Below are positions 20,273-61,245 of a DNA stretch of 64,000 nt, piece by piece. The stretch is from contig CAWFSF010000003.1 of assembly GCA_963818475.1 (NCBI GenBank), forward strand, positions 96,001 to 160,000. Reading direction: 5' to 3'. Both the position numbers and the translations under genes were made by a program. This DNA is from Nitrospirota bacterium. Lineage in GTDB: Bacteria; Nitrospirota; UBA9217. Numbering within the stretch: the first letter of the stretch is position 1; each line of letters begins with the position of its first letter. Below the pieces are notes generated by a model that saw only the letters and a list, made by a program, of their open reading frames with translations, had not been told where the DNA came from and ran no database searches.

Positions 20273-20460
20273 TACGCACCTCCAATTAGTCTATACGGTC
20301 AATATATACTAATTGAAATCAGATCGCAAGAGGCTTTTAGGTAATTGCAGTGCGATCAGTTGGCAATGTGCAAAGCCTAACATTAAAAGCTGGTCCCGTC
20401 GTCTTCGAGAAAAGGACTAAATGCTACAAAAGAGACTTGACCCTAAGATGTTCCTTCGCT

Positions 20461-21648
20461 CTAATGTTCCAAGCCGGTTACGATACCATTGGCTATGAAG
20501 CTGGAACCCGCCTCCAGCTCGAGTGTAAATGTTTCCTCCGTTGAATCCCGTTCTATGATCTCGCGCAATCTGGCCTGCTGCATTCCTGTTCTGTCATTAT
20601 AAAAATAGAAAGCATCTCCCGGTTGATACAGTCCAACGCTCCCTGCCTGGCGTTTACCCGGTTTATACGAACACCACCCCCTTCCCGCAACCAGAAATGG
20701 ATGGTCCTCGGTTGTCGTTATTTCCGCCCCGTTGTCGAGTTTCAGCGTCAGCAGGCGCGAGTGAACCGCCTTGACAACCTTGGTAACTGTTGCAGCAGTC
20801 AGGGCCGGTTTACTGACATCGAATTGCTTTACCCGGTCGCCGACCGCAATTGCTTCGATCGGCTTTTCCCCGTTTTCCAGCGCGATCTTCGTTCCTCTGG
20901 CAAGGCAGTGCACGTCCAAGCCGTCGAAACGGATCTCGGTGATCACCGTGTCATCGTATGCATCGCCTTTGTACACTTCCATGATCTCGAATCTGAGCAC
21001 AAGATCCTTGCCGTCGCTCGTCCTTCCGAGGGGACCCGCCAGCTTGAACGTCTGGAGCGCACGTGTGTCCTGGAGTTCAAGAATCGCGTACGGCCTGCCC
21101 GTTACCCACAGTTTCAGTTTTTTCACGCGCGAGTTCTTTTTCCAGGCTTCTTCGCTTTTTATATACCCGTTGTAGATCAGGATATCCGTGACCCGCGGAC
21201 TATTGTTTTTGAAGAAGCATTCGAGATACTGTCCTTCTCCATACCCCTGCACGCCCTCGACCCAGGCATTCTTGAAACTGTTGTCATGGGCATTCTCCGC
21301 GTCATAGGTGACATTCCCCGAGGGTTTGAGCGCGGACGACGCGGCCACCTTGTACGGCCCCCCGCCGCAGTACCAGCTGCAGCCCTGATCTTCGATGTCC
21401 CAGATTCCGAAGTCTTCGGATTCTCCCAGTCTAAGCATCAGCTCTTTCTCCCGGTCAGTCAATTCGTCCGAGAGGCCCTTTCTCACCTTTTCAATCGCTT
21501 TGTCTCTCTGCTCGAATTCATTCTGCCTCCGTATGCTCAGATCGGGAACGTCGCCGATTTTCGGCTTCAGAACAGGCAGGTTCTGCGGCTGCCCGAAAGC
21601 CGAAACGACAAACATGAAGAGCGTTAAAAAAAAGCCAAATTTTTTCAT
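20461..21648 (-). CDS. Secreted protein: discoidin-like/NADase-type glycan-binding domain plus C-terminal Hint domain
   Basis: Signal peptide; AWVEGVQGYGEGQ, NGYIKS..W..NSRVKKL; Hint blocks CLARGTKI, TTTEDHPF, FIANGIV. Confidence 0.85.
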   Translation of the reverse strand: MKKFGFFLTLFMFVVSAFGQPQNLPVLKPKIGDVPDLSIRRQNEFEQRDKAIEKVRKGLSDELTDREKELMLRLGESEDFGIWDIEDQGCSWYCGGGPYKVAASSALKPSGNVTYDAENAHDNSFKNAWVEGVQGYGEGQYLECFFKNNSPRVTDILIYNGYIKSEEAWKKNSRVKKLKLWVTGRPYAILELQDTRALQTFKLAGPLGRTSDGKDLVLRFEIMEVYKGDAYDDTVITEIRFDGLDVHCLARGTKIALENGEKPIEAIAVGDRVKQFDVSKPALTAATVTKVVKAVHSRLLTLKLDNGAEITTTEDHPFLVAGRGWCSYKPGKRQAGSVGLYQPGDAFYFYNDRTGMQQARLREIIERDSTEETFTLELEAGSSFIANGIVTGLEH

Positions 21649-21700
21649 TTTGGTAATCTCCCTTGCCGTTGAATATCTGCCCCACGTTAGTTTATTGCTA

Positions 21701-22324
21701 CTATTCCTTAACGGCTAATCGCGCATTCACACTTTCCAGAAATGCGGCAGCTTCCGCTGCATGAGTCATGGCAAGCAAATGACCGGCTTCTTCAACGATC
21801 TCGCATCCGGCTGCCGGACAGGGTATGACGTGGTCCTTCCTGCCGTGAAGGCGGTATATCTTACCTGTCGGACCACCTGGCCATCCCATGAAGGCAGGTA
21901 GGCACACATCGCTCGGATGAATTCTGGATCGGAATCCGCAAACATCGTACTCACCAGACTTCGATGCTTTCCGACGAGAGCCTGAATTATCGTTACAGGG
22001 GCTGCGTTAGCAAGCGGAGACAGCAGCGAAAGCATCGGCTGTACTTCCTTTCGGTTTACGGCACTGCCGAGCAGGATTACGGCCTTCGGACTCGACCAGT
22101 TGGGCGATCTCAAGAGCAACCATGCCCCCGAGGGAAGATCCACCCACAACGTCATCAGCGCCGATATCGTTTTCCTTGATGACTCTCCGGGCCACGTCTG
22201 CGTACGTTTTCTCACCGCGATATTCAGGCCAGTTGAGAAAGTTGACTTTGAATCCCAGCTTATGCTTCAGCCCGTTGTACATGGCATCTGTTGCGCCCAT
22301 TCCGGGCAGTAAGAACCATCTCAT
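21701..22324 (-). pseudogene. Alpha/beta hydrolase, two frameshifts
   Basis: LLPGMGA, GSSLGG nucleophile elbow, HGRKDHVIP, AGHL across three frames. Confidence 0.8.
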
Positions 22325-22539
22325 GATGACTCAGCTTTCTTTTCCAACTCTGGCTAAAACTCACGCAAGGAATCGAGCAATATTGGCGAAGAACGACAAA
22401 TGTCAAGACGCAAGACCCTAAAGGTTCCACTAATAGCTCTTTAGAGCCGATACCATAACAAAGGACCTGACCCTGTTGGGCCCCATGTCTCTAGGAAGAA
22501 ATACTATGAAAAGGGAATTCACTGCGGATTAACGACGTT

Positions 22540-23644
22540 TCATCTTCTTCTGTGAAAACTAATAGTATCAATGGAAAATTCGAGGATCTGTTCTGACCGT
22601 GTATTAAAAATTACACTGGCTTCAAAATCTGCAGAGAAATATGTTTCAACGTGGCTTTCCATGCCTTCTAGCTCTGCATTGATGAACACCTTGTCGAATG
22701 CTATTATATTGCCAAAGTACTCTTCGATAGGAATCACGAGCTTTGCTACTACAGTGAGGAGAGTGAATCGATATTCGATATAGATATCATCGCCGGAAAC
22801 TTCGGTAAAATTAACTATTTCGGGATATTCAACTCCCTCAAAATCAACAAAACTGATTCGCTCCATGTGCTTTATACATTCTTGTGGATAGTCATCCTCT
22901 TCGAGAAGAACCTTGCATTCATGAATAGGCAGCTCGTTCAAAGTGTTTATCCCAGCGTCGGTAGCGAAGTCTTCAAGCATGTTGCCATATTTTTCTTGGA
23001 ATTTATCGTGATTGAAGCTATGTATGCCTTTCTCGATATTTTTTTCGACGAAATCTTTTAGTGAGATGTATAGCTGGAACTCGTTCAATACGTTATTTGA
23101 AGTAAGATCATCACGTAAATCTTTATGCAAAGCGACTGTCGAATCATTGATCTCAAAAAAATCATTCGTATTTGCGTTGATGAATGCGACGCATTCATCT
23201 TTATTAAGTTTTTTTAGATGCTGGATTGTGGAAAGCCAGATCAGGGCATCTCGATATCCTTTTTCTTCGAGCACGAAAGGGTCTCTGACCTTTTATAGCC
23301 TTGCGTACAAGAATATCGTGTGTTACTAGATCGTGTTCTATAATATCAACGTTATCAAATTTTTCTGCAATTATTTTGGCAAAATCATACTCTATGCTGT
23401 TTTGTGCCGGCCCTTCGATTTTCATATCGATTTTAAGGTCGCTACATCTCCTCGATATTTTCTCGATTTCTTCGAGCGTCGCCTTTGATTCGGAATCGAA
23501 CTTATTTTTCAATTCCATGCAAACGACTCTCGGAAGCAGAAGCCTTGCATTCGTATTGTTTGCGAAGTTAGCAAGCAAGGAGAACTGTGGACTCTTCAAG
23601 AACCAGTTGTTAAAGAATATATTGGTATCTATTATAATGTACAT
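22540..23644 (-). pseudogene. PIN-like (DUF4935-type) protein, frameshifted near 23275
   Basis: IIIDTNIF N-terminus; KGYRDALIWLS and FINANTNDF in second frame; low GC. Confidence 0.75.
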
Positions 23645-23938
23645 ATCTCTTACCGTCTTAAAAGAATCAACTAAGAGCTAGTCGTCCGTTGCGTTAATGT
23701 ATATATCCCTGATTCTACCATCCCATATAACGTTGTTGTTGAAATTGCATTACGTAATGAAACGCAACGGGTGCAACAACGTCACTCGGGCGCGGACAAT
23801 TTTTATGCTGCTGCGAAATAGGTGCAGAATGTTCAAGGACATCGTATATTCATAACAGTACCTAATTCCCCCTGATGGTTTGTGAAGAAAATCACAAATT
23901 CCATCAACATCCCGGAAACGGTCTCACGCGGCGGTTTT

Positions 23939-26425
23939 TCACTCCCTTCTTACCCTGACAGGTATCGTCGTAGTCACGCCGATCTGAATTGCGACCGGCG
24001 TATAAATATCCACAGCCAGATCGGGGGTATTAATGGAAACAATTAAGGAGTAACGGCATCGTTTATTCCATCGCTCTAGTTGATGTCGTTCCCTCCACCA
24101 GCCAACAGCAGGATAAACGGCAATTAAATTCGATGTTGCAAGATCGGCAGCTGTTCCTTGCCAAATATCGGAGTGTATGGAGCCGACGTTACGGGCTTCT
24201 CCAATAAGCCATTTGTCCCGTGGACCTTCGGTACCCGGATGTTCTCCCTCATCATCTCGTGCTTGCGTATTCACGCGCTGCACAAACTCATCTTCCGTTT
24301 CGCTTGGTCCATTCATTTCAAATCTAAGAGCATGGGAAGCATATCTATAGCGGTTGTCCCATCCGATTTCGCCCGGTCCTGGCTCAACAAAGTAAGAGAG
24401 TGTGATCCGCATTTTTACCAGCGTCTCACCCAATTCAGTTAAAACTTCGGATGGCCACGGCAGTTTGTACAGATGCATATCCTTGGTAACATATCGAGAG
24501 TCTATCTTATCAAAGGGTTGCAAGTCAGTTTCTGAAATCAAAGTCAATGAATTAGCCGCGCAGTATAACGCTCGCTCAAGATTCGGAACGCCGTATCCGC
24601 AAATGCGAAGCAATCTTGCGTAATCTTGTTTGGTAGGTTCAAGAGTGTTTATGAATTGCGCTTTCATCACATCGGTCCAATCGGCGGTGTGCACGATCAT
24701 GGCGCGTACCGTTTCAGGCCAGAAACTCGGATATTGAGTCTGTATTTGTGCAGCCATCCACGCGGCCTGTCCAACTGCGGCGCTTGTAGCATGAAATGGT
24801 GCAAATTGTTCCACATGTGGTTCATGCGACGTGGAAAGTAGCTTAAGATCCTCAGGGTCATACATAGAGTCATTGGGTCCGCGCGCTACATTCCCCCCTT
24901 CAAAAACAACGTCAGGTTTGATAGGCCATTTGCGCGGACTCCAAGTAGAAGAAGTAGTGCTATATGGGGAAAGTCCGCCTGAAGGTGCGAGGGGAGTAAA
25001 AGCACTGAGAGTCACGTCAGCTATATGCGTTTTTTCGGTAAAGGCACCGACCGTAAGGGCATTCCAAGCTTGCCCCGGGTCATGAACTTGGTTCGTAAGG
25101 TTGTCAGTTGGATAATTGCGCCAATTGATCGGATCTTCAACATTACCTGCGCTCAGCACTATGAGCCGGTGAATGTCGCCTTCATATCCCGAGGCTAATT
25201 CATCCACCATGGCCGACCAAGAGGAAGGTCGTCCTCGATCACGGTCTTCCGTTGAAGTTATTGCCAGGCACACAATTCGCTTACGCTGAGGCGCTTGAAT
25301 TTCAGCGAGCGAAATTCCTTGTGAGGTCATGTGACCCCATAATCTTTTTTGATTTTCTGCGGGCGGAGGTGGCAGGATTTTTGCGGATTCCAGACGATGG
25401 CCTACGTAGACCGGGTCTCGGCTATTGAGTAAAGCAAGCAAATCACCATAGGCTGCTGTTCCAGCCATCAGGGTCCCATGACCCTTATGGTCATGCACCC
25501 CCCATGAGGGATCGATTGCGTGGCGGTCGCTGTTGTTCAGGACTGGCTGGAGGAGTAAGTGCCCGTTGTTTACTCCCATGTCGAGAATGCAGATTGACAC
25601 GCCCGCGTTATCATTAAAGTCGGTACGGCTTAGCAATTCCCGTACACGTTCCACTTGCTCGCGATTTTGCAGTTCAATAAAAAAGGTTGCTACTTGCTTA
25701 GCAGCGCGATACTCAGAAATGTCATCAGAAGACTCGGCCAAGCGTTCCAATTGGCTCCGATTTGCTTTTATAAGCATCACTTGTCGTTCGGGAAACTTCA
25801 GGACACCCTCAGATGCCTCGATGTTAACCTCTCTAAGTAATGCTTCAAAGCGCGACAAAATCTCCACCTTATCGCCTTGCAGCCACACTTCGACCCATTC
25901 AGGATCGTCACCTGGTATCAAATCATTTTCATCTGAACGCCAGAAGGATTTCAAGACCGCTTTGCGAATATCGGAAATGCTATCAACTAATTTGGCATTT
26001 TTCGGCTTATTGCTTGGCCCATGCTCCAGCGCGTATGCCTCAATCTTCTTGAGAAAATACCCCCGTTGCCTGTGCGGGACATAAACGGTTGCGAGTGTGC
26101 GTTGTGACGATTCGCCTCCTTCTTTACGAATATTCAGAAGACGAATTCCTGATCGAATATTTTCGAGACTTTGAATTGCTAAATCGAACCCCGGTTCGCT
26201 CTCAAATTCAAGATACGCACCATGACGTTCAACCTGAACAACGGCCAGTTGCCGATCAACTTCACTCCACGTTTGCCGAAGACGCTCTTGCAGATAAGCA
26301 CTGTGAAGATCGCGGTCTCTATTTTTCGGGATGCGGTCGGTAGAACTGCCCCGCCGTGGGTTGGTATACCCCTGAGTGCGTGAAGGTCCTGACAATAATA
26401 TGTGTCTATAATGCTCTCCAGCCAT
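23939..26425 (-). CDS. S8 subtilase, IetS-like
   Basis: ILDMGV, HGTLMAG, SAGN, IKPDVV, ATSAA catalytic motifs; GYGVP; follows AAA ATPase. Confidence 0.9.
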   Translation of the reverse strand: MAGEHYRHILLSGPSRTQGYTNPRRGSSTDRIPKNRDRDLHSAYLQERLRQTWSEVDRQLAVVQVERHGAYLEFESEPGFDLAIQSLENIRSGIRLLNIRKEGGESSQRTLATVYVPHRQRGYFLKKIEAYALEHGPSNKPKNAKLVDSISDIRKAVLKSFWRSDENDLIPGDDPEWVEVWLQGDKVEILSRFEALLREVNIEASEGVLKFPERQVMLIKANRSQLERLAESSDDISEYRAAKQVATFFIELQNREQVERVRELLSRTDFNDNAGVSICILDMGVNNGHLLLQPVLNNSDRHAIDPSWGVHDHKGHGTLMAGTAAYGDLLALLNSRDPVYVGHRLESAKILPPPPAENQKRLWGHMTSQGISLAEIQAPQRKRIVCLAITSTEDRDRGRPSSWSAMVDELASGYEGDIHRLIVLSAGNVEDPINWRNYPTDNLTNQVHDPGQAWNALTVGAFTEKTHIADVTLSAFTPLAPSGGLSPYSTTSSTWSPRKWPIKPDVVFEGGNVARGPNDSMYDPEDLKLLSTSHEPHVEQFAPFHATSAAVGQAAWMAAQIQTQYPSFWPETVRAMIVHTADWTDVMKAQFINTLEPTKQDYARLLRICGYGVPNLERALYCAANSLTLISETDLQPFDKIDSRYVTKDMHLYKLPWPSEVLTELGETLVKMRITLSYFVEPGPGEIGWDNRYRYASHALRFEMNGPSETEDEFVQRVNTQARDDEGEHPGTEGPRDKWLIGEARNVGSIHSDIWQGTAADLATSNLIAVYPAVGWWRERHQLERWNKRCRYSLIVSINTPDLAVDIYTPVAIQIGVTTTIPVRVRRE

Positions 26426-26444
26426 GCGGCTTTTATCCTCTTAA

Positions 26445-27401
26445 TTACTGGTGAATGCTCTGACGTTCCTTCAGCATTTGTAGCAAGAAAGCTGGGCTAA
26501 CCTTCTCCTTATCAGAGAGAATGGTCTGTTTTATCGCATCCCGACAGGCTTGGTCGATTTCAGCATGACTCAAACCATTCGATTCAGAAACCGCATCTTT
26601 CCATGAAAATTTAACCGCGAGAAATGAACTCAATAGATTTTGCATTAAGCGCTTCCTGGCCTGATCATCCGGTAGTTTATAGTAGAGCACATCGTCAAAG
26701 CGGCGAAACAGTGCCCGGTCCAATAATTTTGGGCTGTTTGAGGCAGCGACTATCAAGCTATCTGAAGTGTCCTGTTCGATGAATTGCAAAAAAGCATTCA
26801 GAACCCGGCGCATTTCACCTACGTCGTTGTCCATAGATCGCTCACCGCCGATAGCATCGAATTCATCGAATAGATACACCCCTGGCTCCTGCTGGATCAG
26901 CTCGAATATCTGTCTGAGCTTGGCACTGGTTTCTCCCATGAACTTTGTAACCATCTTGTCGACCTGAACGGTATTAAGAGTTAGTCGTAATTCATTTGCC
27001 AATACCTGAGTTGTCATTGTTTTGCCCGTCCCGGGTGGCCCTACAAGTAATATTTTTCGCCGATGGGACAGACCGTGGCTCTTCAGTTTTTCCTGCTGCC
27101 GATATTCATGAATAATCCGATCAACCCGGTTCATAAGACTGTCCGGCATCACGAGGGTCGCCTTGGACGTTTTCGGTTGCTCTGACAGCACGAGACCCCG
27201 CAAATCTTGAGGAAACTTCAGTACTCGCGGACCCCTTTCCTTCCGTGCCTTATCAACAATTTCACGGATATCGACCGCTAAAGCACCGTGCCCCTGCTGA
27301 GATTCATGCGCCGCTACCTGAAGAGCTGTAGTGAAAAAACGCTCAGGATCGCTGCTGAAATGCGATCGGATAAGTGCTTTTAATTGTTCCGCAGTCGCCA
27401 T
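26445..27401 (-). CDS. AAA ATPase, IetA-like
   Basis: GPPGTGKT, LFDEFD, LDRALFRRFD. Confidence 0.9.
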   Translation of the reverse strand: MATAEQLKALIRSHFSSDPERFFTTALQVAAHESQQGHGALAVDIREIVDKARKERGPRVLKFPQDLRGLVLSEQPKTSKATLVMPDSLMNRVDRIIHEYRQQEKLKSHGLSHRRKILLVGPPGTGKTMTTQVLANELRLTLNTVQVDKMVTKFMGETSAKLRQIFELIQQEPGVYLFDEFDAIGGERSMDNDVGEMRRVLNAFLQFIEQDTSDSLIVAASNSPKLLDRALFRRFDDVLYYKLPDDQARKRLMQNLLSSFLAVKFSWKDAVSESNGLSHAEIDQACRDAIKQTILSDKEKVSPAFLLQMLKERQSIHQ

Positions 27402-27613
27402 ATTGTTACCTCATGCCTACATATAAAAGCTCAATTTGTAGTAGATTAACACACCTCACTAAAGATTTATAGTTTTTTTCATCTACGAATTCAGGGGACG
27501 TTGTGGCCCAGGTGTCGTTTCGTCCCACCCCCAAGAAGAACTCAAAGGGTCTTTTGATATAACGCTTCCGTTTCTCTCGGCGCGACTCCGTTGTTTCTAA
27601 TTATGCTTCCCCC

Positions 27614-27904
27614 CTACGCTATCTTCAGCTCTTTGCGTATATTTTCCGCGACCCACTGCCGCACCAGGGTTTGATAGGGAATTCCCTTCTTCGTGGCGAC
27701 TTTTTTGATCGACAAGAGATAGAGCGGGTCTAGTTTGATCGTTATGTTCCGCAATTTTCTCTTTCGTTTTCCCGAGAGAATATCCTGCTTGAGCGCGTCT
27801 TCAAGACTCAGCGCGACTTCACCTTCCACGATTTCACCGAGAATACCTCGTTTATCGTAGTACTCCTCATCAGTCACTTTTTTCTTTCCTGTTTTCGCCT
27901 TCAT
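27614..27904 (-). CDS. BrnA/CopG-type antitoxin
   Basis: ITIKLDP...KGIPYQTLVRQWV ribbon-helix-helix. Confidence 0.85.
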   Translation of the reverse strand: MKAKTGKKKVTDEEYYDKRGILGEIVEGEVALSLEDALKQDILSGKRKRKLRNITIKLDPLYLLSIKKVATKKGIPYQTLVRQWVAENIRKELKIA

Positions 27905-27922
27905 AGCTTCCGCCTCCTCGCA

Positions 27923-28195
27923 TCAACCTCGATGTTTCTGCCAGTACCTGATTTCCGCTTTATCCATGTCCCAGCCCGTTATGACCCGCGCCACGCCGTT
28001 CTTTTTCAGGACAAACACGACGGCAAGGTAACGCCCTTCCTCTGTCGGCCCCATCGCGACGTAGTGGCCCTTCTTCGTTTTTCGATATAACGGCCTGCTC
28101 GCGAAGACTTCTTCCGCCTCTTCGGGCTTTACACCATGACCAAGCTCGATATGCACGACATTGCCCTCGTCCCATTCAAATTCCTTGATGAACAA
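27923..28195 (-). CDS. BrnT-family toxin
   Basis: FEWDEGN..H...HGV..EEAEEVF, GRYLAVVF, RVITG. Confidence 0.9.
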   Translation of the reverse strand: MFIKEFEWDEGNVVHIELGHGVKPEEAEEVFASRPLYRKTKKGHYVAMGPTEEGRYLAVVFVLKKNGVARVITGWDMDKAEIRYWQKHRG

Positions 28196-28362
28196 TGTAG
28201 TCCCTCCCGAGGTAATACATAGTATTACTATTTTTTCCGAAAGTCAACGGGTCGATACGTATCAACGACAGGATTGCCACGCTCCCGCCCGGTCGCTCGG
28301 GGACCGCCAAGGGGACGTAGTTGCGCCCGTTGCGCGGCGGTTTAAAAACCTTAACAGTCCGC

Positions 28363-29589: not shown

Positions 29590-29704
29590 AGATTTGTATT
29601 ACAAAGCCCCCGTTCCCACACTTGCAGAAACTCCTGAGGATCAGGTGCTAAATTTTGATGTTCGCCTCTTCCGTGGCGAAGCTGCCCTTATCCTTTCTGC
29701 TTCT

Positions 29705-29817
29705 CTTCCTCATTCTTCCCCGTCATGAACTGCTGATACAGGAACGACACCAAGATCAGCACCGCGGCGAGGCCGACGAAGGATGCCACGCGGTAGAGCT
29801 GGCCGAGCCCAGAGGTC
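29705..29817 (-). repeat. Diverged duplicate of the DUF2339 3' end (other copy 32133-32247)
   Basis: ~113 bp with 6 substitutions and a 2-nt indel. Confidence 0.9.
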
Positions 29818-30309: not shown

Positions 30310-30429
30310 TGCATCCACCACCTTTCAGGGAACCCGGAGGGTTTTGAATGTTGATGTTCTTCTCTTCTATGCTTCCCGTTTCTCTTCCTCGAAATTCTAA
30401 TGGAACTGATAGGGTCAGGTCCATACTGT

Positions 30430-31203
30430 TTACCTCTGGACTTCGACTTCCCTCGTTCCATTCTGGTCAATGACCCGCACCTTGTTTTCCGCATAACTTC
30501 TAATGTTGGCCTGTATTGGTATGTTTCGGTCATCCTCGTAATAGAAATCGGTCCTCACAATCGGTTCCCTGGTGTCCGGCCCGTACATGATCATCTCACG
30601 CAGCTGTCCGAGGTCATTATATTCATATTCGGTGTACGTAACGATCGCCTCCTGCGCTCGCAGTATGCTCTTTTGTGTCTCTTCAAAAGCTGAAGGTGTG
30701 CTTGCCGCCAATCCGACCACGAACCCGCCTGCTGTGCCGACAACAGCCCCTGCGACCAGGCCTCCGGCCATCAGTTCCAGATCGTTGCTGCTGTTTTCCT
30801 CGGTCGAGGCGTCCGCCAACGCGAGGGCCATGACCAATCCAACCGCCGCACCATTCTCGAACCCCTTACCGGTCCAGTCGTACACGATTCGCAAAGGGAC
30901 CCTGAAATCGCCATGAGACCGCTTGATCGCGATATCAAACGTCTTGACAGGAGTATCGCCACGAAACAACCCTACCGTGAACCGTTCTCCCGGATCGACA
31001 GGCCGCTTGTTCAGCGTCTTCACAAACAGGGGCAATCCCCTCTGATCATATTCCACTTCCCTCAGGATGACCGTCCGGAGAGAGCCAGAGGACTGATCTG
31101 CCAGGTTCACCTGTTTGGTGCCGCAGGCGGTAAGAAGAATCAAACAGAGGCTCGAAACAAAGATTGCTCGCATATCAACCCGCATATTAATTAGTCGAGA
31201 CAT
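30430..31203 (-). CDS. Lipoprotein with glycine-rich hydrophobic segment
   Basis: Lipobox LTAC; GxxxG-rich hairpin. Confidence 0.75.
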   Translation of the reverse strand: MSRLINMRVDMRAIFVSSLCLILLTACGTKQVNLADQSSGSLRTVILREVEYDQRGLPLFVKTLNKRPVDPGERFTVGLFRGDTPVKTFDIAIKRSHGDFRVPLRIVYDWTGKGFENGAAVGLVMALALADASTEENSSNDLELMAGGLVAGAVVGTAGGFVVGLAASTPSAFEETQKSILRAQEAIVTYTEYEYNDLGQLREMIMYGPDTREPIVRTDFYYEDDRNIPIQANIRSYAENKVRVIDQNGTREVEVQR

Positions 31204-49037: not shown

Positions 49038-49066
49038 AGACACTGAGTAGGACAGCAGAAAAAGCA

Positions 49067-49090: not shown

Positions 49091-49132
49091 CGCACGGACG
49101 TTGATGGGGTAAGGGAGATGTGACTTACTCAC

Positions 49133-49594: not shown

Positions 49595-49678
49595 CGCTAT
49601 TTTAGTTTTCGTGTAAAATCTAAAATAAGCATCGTAGTTATTTTAGCCTGACGAGGTCGTTTTCTTTTGCACCCCTCA

Positions 49679-50605
49679 GTGTCAGGCCTATAATGTTTAT
49701 ATTTCTATTTTTTCATAAGCTGACTGACGTACGTAAAGTGCATCCCCAGGTGATCAGCTATCGCCCGCTGGGTATATCCGTATTTCTCAACAGCCTCCGC
49801 AATCTTCCGGCTGCGCTTTTGCTTGTCTTTCAGTACAGCCAGCGAAAAGATTTTTGCGAGTTCAGGCCTATGCGCATATCGCTGGCTTCTTGGTATTTCC
49901 GGGACATCCTTGTGTTTTCTCAGATGATCGAGAAGCTTATCGGCAAATTCCTCTTCCCCGAGAATGATCTGACCTCTGACTTCAGTCCAGATCGTCTGTT
50001 TTCCAATTCCCCAATGGACAAACTGTTTATATTCTTTCTCAGCCTTGCCCCTCTTTCCACTGAACTGACCGAGTACCCAGTCGGTCGTAAGGCAGGGATG
50101 CGCTCCTTCCCTTCCAACTGTAGCCCGGTAGCTGCTCCACTTCCATGCTTCGGGAGCATCCACCATCTTTGCCCTTACCGGATTGAGGACGACATATCGG
50201 CAAACCTCCAGAAGATGGCTGTCTTTCTGGATAAGGATGGATTTGTATCTTCCCTGAAAGAGATGGCCGGCACGTCCATGAAGCTTATTGAAGAGCTGAG
50301 TATACACGCCGTTCAACTGCCGCATGCCGATTGCAAGGTTTCCGTCCGGCGTCTCGACCAGAAGATGGTAATGGTTGTCCATGAGGCAACAGGCGTGGCA
50401 GATCCAGTTGTAGCGTTTTTTGACATGCTGAAGGGTATTGAGGAAGTTGATGCGGTCCTGGTCGCTTTTAAAAACGGGCTTTCGCTCGTTTCCACGAGAA
50501 GTAATATGGTAGACAGCACCTGCATACTCTATTCGCAAAGGTCGAGCCATTGGCCCAGAGGATATCAGAAGAAAAGATAAAAGTCAAACATTATAGACCT
50601 GACCC
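49679..50605 (-). mobile_element. Y1 (HUH) transposase with C-terminal HTH (CDS 49705-50550), bounded by 20-bp terminal inverted repeats
   Basis: MARPLRIEY.GAVYHITSRGN, MDNHYH, FQGRYKS, YVVLNPVRA; IRs gtgtcaggcctataatgttt (49679-49698) and aaacattatagacctgaccc (50586-50605), 18/20 match. Confidence 0.9.
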
Positions 50606-50662
50606 TATGAGTTGTTCGGTTTTCTACTTGCGTCTTTTACTTGCTATCTTTCTGGCAGCTCA

Positions 50663-51424: not shown

Positions 51425-51513
51425 GGCAAAGATTCCTCCAGATATTTGTCCGGTAGAGAACCGGAGAATAGTTTAGTCCTCGCCCTACATAAAGACTTGG
51501 GCTGCGGGACGGT

Positions 51514-54444: not shown

Positions 54445-55132
54445 TCGTTTTTACCTGGTTCAAGTCCGCAGCTGTGACCCGCCTCTGGCCGGCGATGCAT
54501 TCATTTATCAACGCTTTGCGATACGCAAATAGGGTTCCCATTTGCCTATTCAGAACTCCAATTGGTCGGGCGATTTCGTTTGGTGCCTTGTGTAGCGATG
54601 CCACCGAATCCAACACGGTGCATTTACTGTCCAAGTATGTCACTATTAATTTTTGTTCTTGGACCGTTGGAAGCGGCAATACAAGGGACCCAAATTCTTT
54701 GTCACCAACTGCGGGGTAACCAACACCCGTTGCTGATGCCTCAAAATACTGGCGAGCATAATCTGATATAAGGACGTAGTAAGCAAACTTGGGCCAAAGT
54801 CGGTTCTCATCTGTCTGCACGACGTTAAATCCTGTAGAGCAGACTAACCCTGATGGGTCATTCGGAAAGAATGCTACCGCCTGAAGATTGGGGCGAACGG
54901 AGGAAATGATTATGCTGTTCTGAAAAACTAATCGGCGTGCTCGCGATGGTGCGTCCTCAAACCGCAGTTGCTCGATGGCATTTAAATCTACGATGCCGAA
55001 ATAGTCCACGTTGGATATTTCAAGATAAGGAAATTCATAATCGGGAGATGTGCTGGCTGACAAAGAGGCTCGATTAATAGCACAAAGATCCTTCATCCTA
55101 TCATCTTTCCAATCGGAGGGAAAGACACTCAT
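54437..55132 (-). CDS. hsdS: Type I specificity subunit, half-size (single TRD)
   Basis: P.DW, APSRARR, STGF, PLPTVQEQ..IV.YLD, ALI...IAGQ; overlaps both neighbours. Confidence 0.85.
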   Translation of the reverse strand: MSVFPSDWKDDRMKDLCAINRASLSASTSPDYEFPYLEISNVDYFGIVDLNAIEQLRFEDAPSRARRLVFQNSIIISSVRPNLQAVAFFPNDPSGLVCSTGFNVVQTDENRLWPKFAYYVLISDYARQYFEASATGVGYPAVGDKEFGSLVLPLPTVQEQKLIVTYLDSKCTVLDSVASLHKAPNEIARPIGVLNRQMGTLFAYRKALINECIAGQRRVTAADLNQVKTNG

Positions 55133-57126
55133 CGAGAAGCCCCTCCCTTTTCAAGCAAACCAACCATTTTCTCTGCTTCCTTCTCCAGTGTCCAAAACTC
55201 TGCTAACAAGTCCTTAGCTGGTGTGGGCGGTTGGTAGCGGTAGAAATATTTGTTCGGCAATATTTCATAGCCGAGCTGCGGGCTGTCTTCCCAGCGGATG
55301 ATGGGCTTGGCGATTTCGCGCTTCAGAAACGCTTCAATATCCTCGCCGTGCGGAATGTACTCGTCATCCTGCACGTAGTGCCTGTGCGTCCATTCGACAG
55401 AAAGGACTTCAGGTCGATCTCCGAGAGCTTCCTTTAACTTCTTAGCGGCGCTGTCTCCTGGTTTGAGGACGAACTCCACGGTCTTCTCTTTGATATCAGT
55501 CTTCACGCGCACGCGGAAGGTGATGTCGTTTTCATGAAACGTCTGTTCTTTGGAAAGGTTGGTTGCGGTGAACGCCTTCTCGTAAGGCTCGGTGACGATG
55601 GCGGGCTGGTCGTGCTCGTCAGTCTGCCAGAAAACCACCTTGACCTTATGAAACGCGAAGTCCTTCCCACGGTAGAGCTTTACATGCTCATCATCAAAAC
55701 TGGGTTTCCAGCCTTTGCGATAACGCTCCTCGATCCATTGCCGGTGAGTGTCAGTCATCCGGTTGCGTTTGTTGCCGAAAGACTTCGGCTCTTTCTCGAA
55801 CTGTTGGCGAGCGTCGATCAGCATCACACGGCTGCGATGGGTGACGGGCTTCTCGTTTCGTAGCAGCCAAATGTAGGTAAAGATGCCAGTGTTGTAGAAC
55901 ATCTGGTCGGGTAACATAACGATAGCATCGAGCCAGTCATTTTCCAGAATCCATCGGCGGATTTCACTCTCGCCTGAGCCACAATCCCCGTTGCAGAGTG
56001 GAGAACCATTGAAGATGATAGCGATGCGACTGCCGCCGTCTTCGGGCAAGACCATCTTCACCAGCATCGTTTGCAGGAAGAGCAGCGCGCCGTCGTTCAC
56101 GCGCGGCATACCAGCCTGGTAGCGAGTCCCCTCCAACTTTTTCGCCTCTGTTTCATATCCGTCCTTGCCGCCCCACGTAACGCCGAAGGGCGGATTGCTG
56201 AGCATGCGGTTGAAGCGGTATTTCGTTTCCGAAAACTGGTCTCCAGGCTCTTTGCTGCGCGAATCGTGCGGAATGAGAGAATTGCCAAGCAGGACCGTCG
56301 CCTGTTTGTCGTTCTTAATAAGAAAGTCGGCCTTACAGATGGCGTAGTTAATAGGCGATAGCTCCTGGCAATGAAGGGTAAGGAACTTCTCAACGCGTTC
56401 CTTTTCCGCCGGAGTGGCAGCGCGATCAAGCATGTGCTCTTTAGCAATGGATACCATGCCGCCTGTTCCGCCAGCCGGGTCGTAAATGGAAAAATGCCGG
56501 TCCGGGATCGGTATCTCCAATAACTCGACCATGAGCCGGATAACCTCACGCGGGGTGAAGTGCTCTCCAGCTTCCTCGCCGCTTTGTTCTGAGAATCGCC
56601 GGAGCAGCTCCTCGTAAATGTACCCCATCTCCAGGCCGGAAAGCTGATCCGGCCCAAGGTTCAGTTCCTTGTATTGATTCAGGATCGGGGCGAGCCGGTT
56701 GTTCTTCACCATCGTGCCGATGATGGCGCGGTAGTTAAAGTGCTCAATGATGTCGTCAACATTCTTTGAGAAGCCGTTGATATAGGCGCGGAAGTTTTCT
56801 TCGAGCAGCGTATGGTCTTCCTCGTACACTTTACGAAGCGTCCAGTCGGTCTTGTTTGAAAATGGTGACTGCTTGGGATTCAGCTCAAGTTCTTTTACAA
56901 GCTTTTTAAGCTCCTTCTCTGTGAGCTTTGGCCGCTTAGCCAGCACCTCGGCTCGCTTTGCCTCACGCCATGCAAGCAACACGCACTCCAGACGTCGTAT
57001 AACTATGATCGGCAGTATGACGCCTTGGTATTCGTAAGCCTTGAACTTTCCGCGAAGTCGTTCGGCAGATTTCCAGATGTCACCGGCAAGGTTGTCGAGC
57101 TTTGGTTTGTTAAGGGAGAGTGCCAT
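55129..57126 (-). CDS. hsdM: Type I methyltransferase subunit M (N6-adenine)
   Basis: GEHFTPREVI, YDPAGGTGG, NPPF, MFYNTGI. Confidence 0.95.
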   Translation of the reverse strand: MALSLNKPKLDNLAGDIWKSAERLRGKFKAYEYQGVILPIIVIRRLECVLLAWREAKRAEVLAKRPKLTEKELKKLVKELELNPKQSPFSNKTDWTLRKVYEEDHTLLEENFRAYINGFSKNVDDIIEHFNYRAIIGTMVKNNRLAPILNQYKELNLGPDQLSGLEMGYIYEELLRRFSEQSGEEAGEHFTPREVIRLMVELLEIPIPDRHFSIYDPAGGTGGMVSIAKEHMLDRAATPAEKERVEKFLTLHCQELSPINYAICKADFLIKNDKQATVLLGNSLIPHDSRSKEPGDQFSETKYRFNRMLSNPPFGVTWGGKDGYETEAKKLEGTRYQAGMPRVNDGALLFLQTMLVKMVLPEDGGSRIAIIFNGSPLCNGDCGSGESEIRRWILENDWLDAIVMLPDQMFYNTGIFTYIWLLRNEKPVTHRSRVMLIDARQQFEKEPKSFGNKRNRMTDTHRQWIEERYRKGWKPSFDDEHVKLYRGKDFAFHKVKVVFWQTDEHDQPAIVTEPYEKAFTATNLSKEQTFHENDITFRVRVKTDIKEKTVEFVLKPGDSAAKKLKEALGDRPEVLSVEWTHRHYVQDDEYIPHGEDIEAFLKREIAKPIIRWEDSPQLGYEILPNKYFYRYQPPTPAKDLLAEFWTLEKEAEKMVGLLEKGGASR

Positions 57127-57158
57127 TATGTTTCTATATATCCTTTCAACTGTTAGTT

Positions 57159-58094
57159 CTATCCGTTATTGGGCCAGGCTTTTGAAAAAACCTGTTTGAA
57201 CTTAATGGCTGCAGCGACAAGCCATGCGAATGCTTCGTCCCGTTGTCGGCTACTTATGTCAAACTTACGCGTCAAGCGTATACGGCTAGCTTTTTTCTCT
57301 GGCAATTCCTGCCACAACAGCGCACCAAGACCAAGCTCTTTCTCAATTGCCTCTTTGTTTGAAAAGAGTGTCGCGTACAAAGCTTTTGAGTTTGGAATAT
57401 ACAGCTCGCAGCCTATTTGATCTTCTAACGTAAGCACTGTCAGAGTGAGATGACTATCCGACCGCCCTATTGAGACATCGTACCAATGTTGTGCTCGTGG
57501 TGTGCGCAACTTTAGGGCCGAATTAACTGCGGCATAATCACGAAGTTGTGTCCAAAATTCAAGTTGAAGAAGTTTCGTATCTGTTAGTTCATTCGGGTCA
57601 GTACTCGTCCCGCCACGAACGGTTTTTGTCCAATCATTGGGTCTGGAAATAATAACAAACTTTGGAGCAGGATCAGACTCGCCTATTTTCCAAAGCTCAA
57701 TGCGGACAAGGAAGAAATTCAGTTTTTCATCAGTATGTTCATTGAGCCAGTCGACTGCTTGCTTGTGCTCATCTCTTACATCTTTAACGATCCATACGAT
57801 GTATTCCGCTTCAATTCCTGCTGCATAGGTGAGAATCTGGCCCAGGTGACAATGGTCTGTTGCTTCCAGCTGGTTTTCAATAACGATTTTCTTGCCGGTA
57901 TTCTCTTCCTGGGCCAGGATATCTGCGCTGAATCTGCCTACTCCTGCCTCGGTTTGTATTAACTCAATATCAAGTCCTATTTCATCCCCTAATTCCGCAA
58001 GGTTCTCCGGTTCGGCAAGCCAGCTTGTAAAGTTAAGCGCCTCATGCTTCCAGTACTCGCGCAGATCTACGTTTGTCAGTTTTCCGAGCTTCAT
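57159..58094 (-). CDS. DUF4268 domain protein with N-terminal PD-(D/E)xK-like domain
   Basis: W.HEA..FT.WL, ADIL...IENQL..TDH.HLGQ, LEFW. Confidence 0.85.
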   Translation of the reverse strand: MKLGKLTNVDLREYWKHEALNFTSWLAEPENLAELGDEIGLDIELIQTEAGVGRFSADILAQEENTGKKIVIENQLEATDHCHLGQILTYAAGIEAEYIVWIVKDVRDEHKQAVDWLNEHTDEKLNFFLVRIELWKIGESDPAPKFVIISRPNDWTKTVRGGTSTDPNELTDTKLLQLEFWTQLRDYAAVNSALKLRTPRAQHWYDVSIGRSDSHLTLTVLTLEDQIGCELYIPNSKALYATLFSNKEAIEKELGLGALLWQELPEKKASRIRLTRKFDISSRQRDEAFAWLVAAAIKFKQVFSKAWPNNG

Positions 58095-58137
58095 TGTGTC
58101 TCCTTTGCAGATAGAGCAATGGTATCGTGAGGATGTT

Positions 58138-58464
58138 TTATTGGGACTGACTACATAGGTATGCCTCGCCTCTTACAGCAGAACCGGACGTGCCCGTTGT
58201 AACGTTTAGGAGATGAACTGTATTTGCTCTCATGTTGGCTGCATTATTTCTAATTTCCCGCATAGCATTCTCTTCTGCTGCTCCTTGGCCGGAAATACCG
58301 CCATTCATGTGGTCAGTGCCTTTTACTTGGCCAATGTATTTGCAGTTTCGTACTACCTCTGCGTTAGAGGTGAGGCGAACTGCTTCGCCTTCCGGTGTAA
58401 GCCCTACGGTGACGCACGAGGAACAAAGTAAGAAAACAAAAAGTAATAAGCATTTTTCTATCAC
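58138..58464 (-). CDS. DUF4156-like lipoprotein
   Basis: Lipobox SSC; CKYIGQV, RNNAA..RANTV, GEAYLC. Confidence 0.75.
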   Translation of the reverse strand: MIEKCLLLFVFLLCSSCVTVGLTPEGEAVRLTSNAEVVRNCKYIGQVKGTDHMNGGISGQGAAEENAMREIRNNAANMRANTVHLLNVTTGTSGSAVRGEAYLCSQSQ

Positions 58465-58572
58465 AACAGTCTCCTTTTATTACCACAGTAAAACCGGACA
58501 CATCAGCATTATGCCGCTATCGGAGATCGTAATGGTGATGATCGTACGCTGCCGCAGGCTGAAACATGAAGC

Positions 58573-60380
58573 GAGTCTGTAGAAAAAGCCAGTTTGAATA
58601 GCTTGCCTGTTCCCCGTTATCTGGTTCTTTGTGTATCCTGGTGTGGGGACGTTTTTATCGATTCTGCTGATTTATCGGTTTAGGAGAGCTGATTTGTTCT
58701 CGCTACCGCATTTTTCATTCCCTTTCTGCTTCCCTTTACCTCAACTACCCGCGAATCCAAACCCGTATCGATGCACCTTCAATAGATTGTGCACGACGCA
58801 ATAGAGCCGCCACTGAATGCTTACCTTCTTTTTCCCTCGGAGGCTGAAGCGATCCAGGCCGAGGCTGCTCCGGACATTGGCAAAGACGGGTTCGACCGTC
58901 GCCATTCTTCGTCCGTAGATCAGCTTGCCGGCTGACCGAGTCTATCTTCTCCCGCATCTTCTGAGTAAACGTCTTCTCCTTGTTCTCGGTCCTTCCGGTA
59001 AAGTGCGCGAACTGTCGAACTTCAGTCCGGTCGGGTTTCTTCAAGCACTTCTCTCTAAGTTGACAAGGGATGCAATCTCGTCTTCGCTCCTTTGAACCTG
59101 ACAACCTGTAATCCGTGAAACGGTACATTCCCGTGACGGTACATCCGTTTCCCGGCAGGGCAGATGCAGAAGCTTTTGTCAGGGCTGACCGTGAAGTCTC
59201 TCGGCTGAAAAATGATCGGCCGGTCGAATTTTTTGGCCATTTCTTTGTTGAACCTCTCCTTGTGTTTGTCCGCATCCGCAAACCGGGGATCGCGGTGACG
59301 AAACTTGTTGTCGGCGATGTATGCGTCGATGCCGTCCTCAATTACCATCTCCACGTTCTTTTCGGAGTGAAAGCCGCGTCGGTGGTCAGTTTGGTCTTTT
59401 TGAATATGTTCTTTTCCTTGCCGATTGTCTCGAAGTTTTCTCGGGTTCCTTCGACCATGGGTTTTAGTATTGCGGATTCGGAGTCTCCGGTCGCTTCCGC
59501 ATGGACCACTACCTGGTGCTTGCTGTCTACCATCGCCACGCCGTTGTAGCCCTGGACCACACCGTGTGAGGTCTTCATGGTGGCGCTTTCGTTGTCGGTT
59601 ATGTTGCTCTTCCGGGGTTTGCCCTTGCTGCCGGGCTTGTCGTCGTTTTCAGCAAGCCAGGTCTTGATCTTCTTGATCTTCGCCTTGAGCGTTGAAATGT
59701 ACTGTTCTTCCTTCTCGATGACGGCCTTGTCGGTCTCGATGCCATCTCGTTCCTTGTGCTTGGTGATCATCTCCCGGATGGCCTTCTCCATCTTCTCTTT
59801 TTTATGTTCGAGTTCTTCCCTGGTTCCGCTCCATTCCTTCGAGGCGTTCGAGGGGAGCTTGCAGCCGTCTACGGCGAACATCTCTTTGCCGATCAGGCCC
59901 ATCTCGTCGCAGATCAGGAGGACTTCGAGGAAAAGCTTGATCGTCTCCTGGTCGTGCGAGGAGATGAAGTCGGCTATCGTGGTGAAGTGCGGCCGGGTGT
60001 CGGCGGAAAGGGCCATGAAGATTACGTTATCGTTGCAGCAATCGGCAATCTTTCTGCTTGAGGTGATTCCTTTGGAATAGGCGTAGAGGACGATCTTTAA
60101 GAGAATCCGGGGATCGTAGGCCGGAGCGCCGGTCTCATCGTTCTTGTACTGGAGGTCGAAAGCGGAAAGGTCGATGTCGTTGTCGATGAGATAGTGAAGA
60201 GTGTGTTCGAAGGTGCCGTGAAGGATTTGTTTGTCGAAGTTGATCGGAATGAACTTGCCTTGGGAATAATTGTAATCTTTATACTTCGCCATACGCCTCC
60301 CGTAGGTGAGGGGTTTTGATGATGCCTTACAGCGTTTTGATGGCGTCATTATAGCATAAAATGACTTTTCCTACAGGTTC
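58573..60380 (-). mobile_element. IS1182-family insertion sequence (transposase 58745-60292, frameshifted)
   Basis: GAPAYDPRILLKI, PHFTTIADF, AVDGCKL, NITDNES; 18-bp imperfect IRs gagtctgtagaaaaagcc / gacttttcctacaggttc. Confidence 0.9.
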
Positions 60381-60434
60381 AACGCGCGGGTGAGACGCGC
60401 GTCTTTTGCGTCGATTTCGACCCGATGGCTGGCT
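60377..60434 (-). other. attC-like integron recombination site (degenerate)
   Basis: 58 bp, 7 nt after stop codon; GTTCAAC core; cgggt/acccg stem with extrahelical G and T on the bottom strand. Confidence 0.55.
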
Positions 60435-60441
60435 TCTATTT

Positions 60442-61026
60442 CTAAAATTTATAATTAATACCGTACTCGATATTATTGAAGGTCGTTCCGTTGAAATTAT
60501 TCTCTGTTACGCGAAAGGTAGATGGAATCGGAATCAATTCAGCATTTTCTGCTTTTTCTCTATAAAAATATAAAATGAGCACAAAAAGACCGGCTGCGGC
60601 ATTCAGGCAATTTTTCAGATTGCCTTTATGATAATCTGTATTTCTGTGATGTTTAACTTTATTGTATGCGGTCCACCAATCGGGCACTCCCGTCGGTTCG
60701 CTCCAATTAGACCACGGTGTGAGCTCAAGACCAAATCTAGGAATCGTAACTTTGAAATTCTGAAAGCTTGGATACGCAGCCCGAATTTCATTTCGATACT
60801 GATTAATATTTGAAGCTGAAGAATTCGGATTTATTTTTGCGCAAAGTTGCTTCGCAACAACATCTGCTTCTGAGGCAGCAGAGAAAAGGACCCTTGATAT
60901 TTCAAGTGAATAACAATTGAAATTGTTTTCGGCGAATTCAATGTATCGTGACAGCACTTCAAGATCCTTCTCTAAAGCGAGAAAGTAATTCCAGTGCGCC
61001 AAAGACGGGCTTGTCAGAATCACCAC
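60442..61026 (-). CDS. Hypothetical protein, possible HEPN-like
   Basis: WNYFLALEKD, WWTAYNKVKH motif; AT-rich. Confidence 0.75.
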   Translation of the reverse strand: MVILTSPSLAHWNYFLALEKDLEVLSRYIEFAENNFNCYSLEISRVLFSAASEADVVAKQLCAKINPNSSASNINQYRNEIRAAYPSFQNFKVTIPRFGLELTPWSNWSEPTGVPDWWTAYNKVKHHRNTDYHKGNLKNCLNAAAGLFVLILYFYREKAENAELIPIPSTFRVTENNFNGTTFNNIEYGINYKF

Positions 61027-61245
61027 GTTATTCCTCCTGCCAACGATGCAAGCCTACAGTGTCAGGTCTTTTATTTTGGTGTTTCAACTTTTTCCGCCAA
61101 CACAAGCCTTTATTCCCTGGCCCATATCCCAACTTCTGTCCGATCTGCACCCCTGATTGCAGCAGGTTCTCATCGTGGATCGTTGATATCGTGGCCGACC
61201 CGCCCGCGACAATTTGCTGCATGAGTGTAGCTGATTGAGTACTCG

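Follow-up and report, generated by a model that had tools for sequence, protein, structure and literature searches.

A TIRtron and a family of related orphan ends near the edges of strain-variable islands in a Nitrospirota genome

Can a small transposase whose terminal repeats recur between genes gather passenger genes in the way of an integron, without an integrase? This question is raised by a stretch of 64,000 nucleotides (nt) from a Nitrospirota bacterium (GenBank assembly GCA_963818475.1, contig CAWFSF010000003.1, positions 96,001 to 160,000), which is called the window below and numbered from its first letter. It carries a gene for an HUH/Y1 transposase related to the REP (repetitive extragenic palindrome)-associated tyrosine transposases (RAYTs). 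The gene is enclosed by two inverted repeats, and copies of these repeat ends lie at several gene boundaries. The window was compared with its source genome (G000; 4.66 Mb on 7 contigs, C1 etc., 91% complete, 6% contamination), with five congeners, among which G003 (71% complete) was the main partner, and with homologous loci in other genomes. Gene and repeats form an element of the TIRtron type. Solitary copies of such ends, here termed orphan ends, belong to several subtypes and constitute a family of about 25 or more, concentrated in flexible islands that are low in GC and rich in toxin-antitoxin (TA) and defence genes. The reading preferred here, which is considered fairly probable, combines a TIRtron with an orphan end family at island junctions: the ends would be relics or products of the element and landing sites for other mobile DNA, and would not capture genes. 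An integron-like interpretation is not supported.

The TIRtron of the window and its relatives

The element comprises four features:

49705..50550, minus strand: TIRYT gene, encoding a RAYT-like HUH/Y1 tyrosine transposase of 281 amino acids (aa) with a C-terminal tail resembling a helix-turn-helix (HTH); matches Pfam Y1_Tnp and NF047646
50579..50610, minus strand: left (5') terminal inverted repeat (TIR) of the TIRtron, core TAGGGTCAGGTC on the gene strand; inverted-repeat arm 50586-50606, profile score 23.3 bits (50581-50609); 27 nt shared without mismatch with a G003 orphan end
49674..49705, minus strand: right (3') TIR of the TIRtron, core degenerate (GGCCTGACAC); inverted-repeat arm 49678-49698, profile score 17.4 bits (49675-49704)
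50559..50587, minus strand: promoter-like site from a consensus scan (TTGACT, 17 nt, TG-TATCCT) with its -35 inside the inner part of the left TIR

The protein is recognised by Pfam Y1_Tnp (E = 7.4e-13, 49.1 bits, cut-off 23) and by the NCBIfam model NF047646 for REP-associated tyrosine transposases (88.9 bits, cut-off 80). In an alignment of 17 proteins, the window protein and 16 homologues, the HUH motif H60-Y61-H62 and Tyr119 in an RYxxLNP helix are invariant; locus L019, whose frame is interrupted by stops, was omitted. Using the profile of this alignment, 4er8 (E. coli TnpAREP) was found as top structure in the PDB with a marginal E-value of 0.0087, and the HUH and Tyr motifs line up. A PDB search with the single 281-aa sequence yielded no match. 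The last 30 residues match HTH_3 with 16.6 bits, which is under the cut-off of 23, and this tail is conserved among the homologues.

The two arms around the gene are 21 nt long, lie 887 nt apart and are complementary at 19 of 21 positions (90%). This bears out the initial annotation of the window, which had described 20-bp inverted repeats enclosing a Y1 transposase with HTH. The terminal sequence of the 50586-50606 arm, the right one in window coordinates, is GACCTGACCC, and the conserved outer core of window-type ends is (T/G)(A/G)GGGTCAGGTC. Judged from its sequence, the stretch 49674-50610 of about 940 bp is one intact TIRtron with the TIRYT as its sole gene.

Relatives of the transposase were found in 26 loci of other genomes, the full-length ones with 45-86% identity. 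Inverted repeats were examined in the 17 loci with near-complete genes, the other nine being partial, and in 14 of the 17 the gene is enclosed by exact inverted repeats, 13-24 nt in length. These elements agree in the outer core (A/G)GGGTCAGGTCT. The inner part of the repeat varies between elements, yet agrees between both ends of one element, i.e. left and right repeats co-vary. In the homologous elements read, TTGAC(A/T) usually follows directly after the left repeat, at the same place as in the window element; promoter-like consensus sites are not more numerous than in shuffled sequences. On such sequence features, the assignment of the window element to the TIRtron/TIRYT family is clear. 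The close homologues reside in metagenome-assembled genomes (MAGs) of Nitrospirota, Thermodesulfovibrionia, Smithella, Syntrophobacterales, Desulfobacterales and Nitrospinota, and this patchy distribution suggests that they may have spread horizontally.

In the source genome, three paralogues share 72% (C5:403096-403932, both ends intact), 71% (5'-truncated) and 62% identity with the window transposase. Several N-terminal transposase fragments are also present, and an end lies ahead of each of them. Four further copies of 271-330 aa (C5:530812, C6:903299, C5:627500 and C1:263731), about 40% identical, constitute a second TIRYT subfamily with a different end (GGGGACGTTGTT...). Its own inverted ends read cttGGGGACGTTGTTgcta ... 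tagcaACAACGTCCCC, and TTGACA is found just inside the left one. A separate short Y1_Tnp gene (C5:67392-67748, within C5:67211-67853) lies between the arms of a perfect 14-nt inverted repeat, AGGTCGGGTAGAGC ... GCTCTACCCGACCT. Upstream of the TIRtron in the window, three short stretches (47458-47674, 48759-48848 and 48964-49037) recur many times in each of the five congeners, at 77-96% identity; they may be small repeats or small RNA genes.

Number, location and neighbourhood of the ends

A profile of the end was seeded with nine ends and iterated once (23 sequences, 32 columns; threshold E <= 1). Across the 4.66 Mb of the source genome it detects 25 copies, against none in the reversed sequence. 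The window contains six of them, where 0.34 are expected from its share of the genome. Searched alone, the window yields six matches of 17.4-23.3 bits, and the best match in the reversed window scores 8.2 bits. The 10-mer with at most one mismatch occurs nine times in the window versus 3.16 +/- 1.73 times in 100 shuffles (largest 8). Shorter words are less telling: the exact sequence GACCTGACCC has 26 sites in the genome, of which six are profile matches and most others appeared GC-rich and coding by eye, and the short core TAGGGTCA is not over-represented (55 in the genome vs. 64 in its reverse). Therefore, only the longer profile is informative. The end motif is absent from the top 12- to 20-mers of the genome, which are a CRISPR-like repeat and heptamer arrays; hence, the end family is not a high-copy family like REPs. 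The CRISPR-like repeat has 28 nt (CGGTTCATCCCCGCACGTGCGGGGAACA) and 63 copies, and the heptamer arrays are long runs of AATCCGC/AATCCGA.

The copies are located in non-coding DNA. This was assessed with an annotation-free measure, the longest open reading frame (ORF) across a position, because a codon-score gene caller overlooked island genes, among them the S8 peptidase (23939-26425), assigned coding status to only 77% of the genome and was dropped. The median is 228 nt at the copies versus 990 nt at 5000 random positions (P = 1.6e-13, Mann-Whitney), and the spanning ORF is shorter than 300 nt at 17 of 25 copies compared to 7.2% of random positions. The initial view that related motifs lie between genes thus holds across the genome. 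Local GC at the copies amounts to 51.1% versus 55.5% (P = 3.6e-7). The copies are also clustered: 22 of 25 have a neighbour within 25 kb, whereas 2000 random placements yield 5.6 on average and 16 at most. Largely, the genes beside them are TA or defence genes (VapBC, PIN, Phd, ParE, RelE/ParE, BrnT/BrnA, AbiEii, OLD-type ATPases, type I restriction). Gene-less inverted dimers, i.e. 'mini' elements with a 19-26-nt spacer, are found at C6:878157, C6:880781 and C6:1163039. A loose scan for inverted end pairs, too noisy for counting (84 matches vs. 28 in the reversed genome), served only to provide examples of such short dimers. 'Stuttered' ends, in which tandem partial copies of the outer tip (e.g. 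CTGACCCTGTATGCTC x3) or duplicated whole ends lie just outside the repeats, were seen at the homologous loci L016, L019, L025 and L029 and, in the source genome, downstream of C6:80573 and at C5:764793.

Seven of the eight motif sites listed initially are real ends, six by profile and the one at 22407 by eye; the eighth, at 29637, is at chance level. The accompanying caveat that the core also occurs in Asp-Leu-Thr-Leu codons (17804 and 19359) was right, since both coding sites score at noise level. The sites outside the TIRtron are:

20417..20448, plus strand: orphan end, subtype tgctACAAAAGAGACTTGACCCTAAG; profile match 20419-20447, inner side toward vapB, 29 nt from the synteny break with G003
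22398..22424, plus strand: orphan end of another subtype (AAATGTCAAGACGCAAGACCCTAAAGG); missed by the profile, matched by eye
22447..22478, plus strand: orphan end, subtype ATACCATAACAAAGGACCTGACCCTGT; profile match 22449-22477, 91 nt from the synteny break
30407..30438, minus strand: orphan end between two minus-strand genes; profile match 30409-30436, overlaps the annotated start of ORF 29816-30424
61054..61085, minus strand: orphan end, subtype CASGTCTTTTATTTTGG, at the right edge of a 13-kb variable island; profile match 61055-61083, 5 nt from the nearest break
29634..29660, minus strand: initially listed site 29637; 3.4 bits, E = 8.9 (window alone), indistinguishable from chance
17803..17814, minus strand: chance occurrence of the core in Asp-Leu-Thr-Leu codons; 7.1 bits, GC-rich coding context
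19358..19370, minus strand: chance occurrence of the core in Asp-Leu-Thr-Leu codons; 7.9 bits, in ORF 18782-19426 (...SQLDLTLVG...)
19644..20272, minus strand: vapBC toxin-antitoxin module; NCBIfam VapC 189 bits (cut-off 140), VapB 118 bits (cut-off 100)

Two kinds of orphan ends can be distinguished. Some appear to be relics. About 45 nt of the inner flank of the 20417 end resemble the 5' untranslated region (UTR) of the paralogue C5:403932, and other ends stand before N-terminal fragments. The site at 22407 agrees by eye at 22 of 23 positions with TAGGGTCTTGCGGCTTGACATTT, the left end ahead of the transposase fragment C2:845909. In G000, G002 and G003, three genomes of the genus, the DNA ahead of vapB contains the inner part of an end (aaaagtctaacattata...), and G003 and G002 read aaaagtctaaca(c/t)ta(a/t)aGACC... 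at this place. Other orphan ends are discrete short units, as exemplified by the CASGTCTTTTATTTTGG subtype. Its seven copies in the source genome have only about 30-38 nt in common and then diverge. Seven copies were also found in G003 and three each in G005 and G012, none with the reversed pattern and none in 17 other relatives searched. A CASGTCTTTTATTTTGG end flanks a transposase gene in G003 and G005; no cognate gene with this end was found in G000. The 61054 end itself is the tip of a unit of about 235 nt (61049-61285), which finishes in a hairpin and is conserved in three contexts. The inner end of this unit (61207-61285) belongs to a repeat family of about 70 nt with the terminal hairpin GTCACCTGTCgaaaaTGACAGGTG and about ten genome copies, among them C2:833408, C6:737655, C6:741060 and C5:163258.

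Compared with G003, the window is a mosaic in which conserved blocks of 90-97% identity alternate with unrelated DNA (20388-22099, 22356-28298, 29602-31391, 36096-47158 and 47732-61048). From 61049 onward the window is again homologous to G003; this point is 5 nt outside the profile match of the 61054 end. At the 20417 and 22447 junctions, G003 also has an end, which is of another subtype and followed by unrelated DNA. The end at 30407 lies inside the 1.8-kb stretch missing from G003, 805 nt from the nearest break. For a statistical evaluation, the window and three other 20-kb regions of the source genome were aligned with the five congeners, blocks of at least 80% identity were defined, and 1205 other non-coding positions in the same regions served as control (binomial test). 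A block edge is no more than 100 nt away for ten of 11 orphan ends, compared with 448 of the 1205 control positions (37%; P = 3.7e-4), and no more than 50 nt away for six of 11, compared with 25.7% (P = 0.039). In these numbers, the 11 ends are clustered and hence non-independent, the congeners are incomplete, and the edges are those of local (BLAST-type) alignments. With this proviso, the ends mark module junctions, as 10 of 11 are this close to an edge of shared DNA. The strain comparison suggested together with the initial list therefore places orphan ends near the edges of variable DNA. At three junctions, homology ends 5-10 nt outside the profile match, at the outer end. Some orphan ends are common to G000 and G003 at orthologous places.

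Several observations concern the DNA at these edges. A polymorphic-toxin-like ORF (20461-21648, minus strand) with NADase_transloc and Hint/intein-type domains fills most of the 1.7-kb stretch missing from G003. The gene at 21766-22324 (minus strand) has a conserved 5' part (22100-22355) and changes frame downstream, and it may be either a fused gene or a pseudogene located at the breakpoint. Two overlapping minus-strand ORFs, 22540-23274 and 23204-23644, share a single PIN_12 domain between them, and a frameshift is the probable cause. The 1.8-kb insertion 29602-31391 has at its right edge (31397-31424) a canonical GTAG-tagged palindrome (GTAGGGGCGAACGGCCGTTCGCCC...), of which several copies lie at the corresponding G003 junction (locus L010). 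Thus, true REPs coexist with the TIR family. The gene for tmRNA (62767-63118, minus strand; tag ANNELALAA) abuts the second variable island of the window: immediately downstream are the 13-kb island 47732-61048 and a conserved TA stretch, which comprises PIN genes and a Phd-like antitoxin, and no integrase was seen between.

The orientation of neighbouring ends was determined among the 25 profile matches. Inward-facing pairs are found only in the two intact TIRtrons. Of the other 13 neighbouring pairs, seven have the same orientation, six face outward and none faces inward; under random orientation, zero of 13 would have a probability of about 0.02. In the outward-facing pairs, the outer tips look at each other across 8-17 kb of variable DNA:

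window, 22478-30407: outward-facing pair
window, 50610-61054: outward-facing pair
C5:764793-774854: outward-facing pair
C2:832946-846483: outward-facing pair
C6:2210580-2221056: outward-facing pair
C6:274067-290783: outward-facing pair

A second mobile element uses the ends as target. The source genome contains six identical full copies of a group II intron of 1909 nt (C6:241300, 266832, 268959, 271793 and 880829; C2:835847; loci L055-L065). It was identified by Rfam domain matches and an RVT_1/GIIM maturase that scores 397 bits on TIGR04416 and has no endonuclease domain. Five of the six copies are inserted directly after ...TGACC (then C(T/C)A), inside the end core; the sixth lies at a terminator-like hairpin downstream of a tRNA-like 3' end. 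In G002 (loci L056, L058, L062, L064 and L066), all five visible 5' intron junctions are in ends, three of them in dimers and two in single ends, one of the latter beside a RelE/ParE-type module. Taken together, 10 of 11 readable 5' junctions in G000 and G002 are at the fixed position ...TGACC^C in the end core. At its position 191, the intron has the sequence GGTCAAAT, which complements the target and resembles exon-binding site 1 (EBS1). The use of the tip as a landing site by this intron offers a concrete explanation for foreign DNA abutting end tips. No tRNA genes were found near the end clusters in 11 loci; a T-arm-like stretch at C6:266.8 kb is not a tRNA but domain I of the group II intron.

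Possible mechanism and alternative explanations

By analogy with RAYTs and IS200/IS605 transposases, which act at hairpins, the enzyme would most likely recognise the ends and nick single-stranded DNA at or just outside the conserved tip. When the DNA is single-stranded, an element or gene-less dimer could form, by pairing of its two ends, a stem of the kind that is usually recognised by HUH/Y1 enzymes, and the HTH tail might bind the double-stranded end or the promoter. Orphan ends would be products or relics that arise from one-ended or abortive events and decay and that persist between genes. They would mark junctions, as flexible DNA may accumulate there and other mobile DNA could insert at the tip itself. 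Such insertion is demonstrated for one group II intron, and ends are also nested next to ends.

Several points weigh against this reading. Single ends are non-palindromic and give no fold signal, which sits awkwardly with recognition by an HUH enzyme that prefers hairpins. No report of a bench experiment on TIRtrons or TIRYTs was found in the library searched, and cleavage, choice of strand and HTH function are inferences. Nothing in the source genome points to recent movement: the paralogues reach no more than 72% identity, the core of the window element is degenerate at its right end, and no empty site was found in relatives. The absence of inward-facing and the excess of outward-facing pairs (6 of 13) have no explanation. 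The junction statistic is subject to the limits given above. In addition, closeness to junctions and differing subtypes at the same two junctions are also predicted by an active exchange of flanking DNA.

Such an exchange is the first alternative. It supposes that the end tips are active joints at which the TIRYT nicks single-stranded DNA and joins it to another end or to foreign DNA, whereby TA and defence modules would be swapped between islands without an integrase and in a looser manner than in an integron. Module exchange would explain the differing subtypes at the same junctions, the stop of homology 5-10 nt outside the match and the surplus of outward pairs. It is regarded as unlikely.

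Likewise unlikely is a domesticated system of the RAYT/REPIN type, in which a vertically kept transposase maintains the ends as short non-autonomous repeats for the benefit of the host. It would fit with the match to the NCBI model for RAYTs, with orphan ends as discrete units of about 30-38 nt in several contexts, with the gene-less inverted dimers and with the orthologous orphan ends in G000 and G003. However, the transposase gene is multi-copy and diverged instead of single-copy, and its patchy homologues suggest horizontal spread. There are only about 25 repeats, which are not among the abundant k-mers and are not palindromic GTAG REPs, and the seven-copy CASGTCTTTTATTTTGG subtype lacks a cognate gene in the G000 assembly.

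Somewhat harder to sustain, and quite improbable, is the initial proposal that the Y1 transposase uses the ends to capture, mobilise or stack passengers, perhaps re-using attC sites, as an integrase-free analogue of an integron. Module junctions are indeed a more common location for ends than for other non-coding DNA, homology with a congener stops 5-10 nt beyond the match at three junctions, and seven of 13 neighbouring pairs have the same orientation, as in attC arrays. TA modules, which are typical cargo of large integrons, adjoin many ends. Apart from the two TIRtrons, however, no pair faces inward, a hidden or degenerate inverted partner within 80 nt of an orphan end (z >= 3) was found for none of the 25 copies, and no passenger block was seen at two places with ends on both sides. 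In seven orphan ends read, the inner side points toward a gene 5' end in four cases and toward a gene 3' end in three; therefore, there is no fixed polarity of the attC kind. A small module (C5:764292-764709) that lies between two ends in G000 recurs in G005 and G002, with no end in the stretches fetched there. The RelE/ParE-type TA module at C5:774970-775638 is followed, in G000, G003 and G002 alike, by an end at a distance of 47-85 nt. These three ends are of different subtypes, the spacers do not align, and the 94-96% homology breaks off at the stop codon. TA module and end are hence separate pieces and do not constitute one unit.

The link to integron cassettes fares no better. Several sites had been said to abut words resembling attC cores, but only one of eight has GTTRRRY/RYYYAAC within 25 nt (GTTGGGC at 22475; 0.42 expected, P = 0.35), and gttcggtt and GTTGGCA do not fit the consensus. 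Folds of the sites as single-stranded DNA are unremarkable (z from -2.1 to +1.8), so that no hairpin signal is seen. No protein of the 91%-complete assembly reaches the cut-off of the integron integrase model TIGR02249 (best 105 bits vs. 265). The claims that the ends mobilise or stack passenger genes and that these are scavenged cassettes are not supported.

A further possibility, very improbable in our view, is that the ends mainly act as portable promoter or operator modules, the -35 in the end driving neighbours such as vapBC and the HTH tail regulating them. In the window element and in most homologues read, the left end has TTGAC(A/T) at its inner edge, and the inner side is directed toward a gene 5' end in four of seven orphan ends and, for vapBC, in three genomes. 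The other three of seven point toward a gene 3' end, though, and the promoter matches are consensus matches only, at a frequency not above shuffles. Among public sequencing runs, the best one contains 0.11 of the words sampled from the window. Finally, chance or codon-driven matches, to which most of the exact GACCTGACCC sites outside the profile matches and the two coding window sites may well belong, are refuted as a general explanation by 25 versus 0 profile matches, by their non-coding and clustered location and by an architecture identical to that of the gene-flanking repeats of homologues in other genomes.

Relics and landing sites thus being the preferred reading, this genome offers a countable case of orphan ends of TIRtrons, small jumping genes of a little-studied kind, that lie at the seams of TA and defence islands and on which a second mobile element also lands. 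Provided that the tip is indeed where the enzyme cuts, such ends would inexpensively flag recombination seams in phyla that are poorly known, and they would allow one to study how inverted repeats, in place of hairpins, are handled by an HUH enzyme. The finding also corrects an analogy with integrons that is attractive but unsupported.

Comparison with known systems

RAYTs and their REPs or REPINs have been described in several papers (Nunvar 2010; Bertels & Rainey 2011, PMC3116915; Ton-Hoang 2012, PMC3333891). The enzyme superfamily is the same, as the window protein passes the NCBI model for RAYTs, and both systems have short extragenic repeats related to the flanks of the gene. REPs are also known as landing sites for insertion sequences (Tobes & Pareja 2006, PMC1525189). 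In contrast to hundreds of GTAG-tagged palindromes with a single-copy gene per REP family, the repeats found here are non-palindromic, lack the GTAG tag and number about 25, and the gene is present in multiple diverged copies (three at 62-72%, four at about 40%, and fragments).

In the IS200/IS605 family, the ends are asymmetric and carry subterminal hairpins, terminal inverted repeats are lacking, and the copies are usually near-identical. Window-type ends, on the other hand, are inverted repeats without hairpin signal, and the copies are at most 72% identical. Common to both are the HUH/Y1 catalytic core and the organisation as a small one-gene element. IS91/ISCR elements encode a Rep-like HUH transposase with two catalytic tyrosines and have oriIS/terIS ends; the window transposase has a single invariant Tyr in its catalytic helix, in agreement with the Y1_Tnp family. 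For IS200/IS605, Y1 transposition proceeds by a peel-and-paste mechanism (PMC5027513).

Integron attC arrays resemble the present case in that repeats reminiscent of recombination sites lie between small modules, many of them TA modules, and form runs of one orientation. The differences are that here no IntI was found, neither attC-type palindromes nor R'/R'' cores exceed chance, the polarity to genes is variable, and modules recur without sites. Class C group II introns target terminators and attC sites. With group II introns that home into transposon end repeats, the present intron shares the missing endonuclease, the fixed position in the end repeat and an EBS1-like complementary stretch. 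Its target here are the tips of TIRtron ends, including those of gene-less dimers and orphan ends.

The closest relatives are the TIRtrons themselves. TIRtron and TIRYT were named by Di Nocera, De Gregorio & Rocco (2013, PMC3733652), according to whom GGGGWSAS is common to most of the TIRs and some TIRs form dispersed families. Quentin et al. (2018, PMC6006769) equate them with TnpA-Y1 subclass 2.1, whose C-terminal HTH extensions are of the Bac_DnaA_C, HTH_23 or HTH_28 type. In the library searched, no other work was found to use the name TIRtron. The window element, whose HTH-like tail matches only HTH_3 and stays under the cut-off, has the same RAYT-like Y1 gene, flanking TIRs that are not GTAG hairpins, moderately abundant end copies (single, paired and clustered), several different TIRYT genes per genome and a GGGGWSAS-type core in its repeats. 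The left end fits this core at seven of eight positions (AGGGTCAG, one base off) and the right end at six of eight (AGTGTCAG, two off); GGGGTCAG, in the homologues L016, L018, L021 and L023 and in the G000 copies C5:632049 and C5:187451, fits at all eight. The host, a MAG lineage of the Nitrospirota type, is different. Relative to the excerpts of the TIRtron literature considered here, two features are new: the position of ends near the edges of strain-variable modules and their use as homing site by a group II intron.

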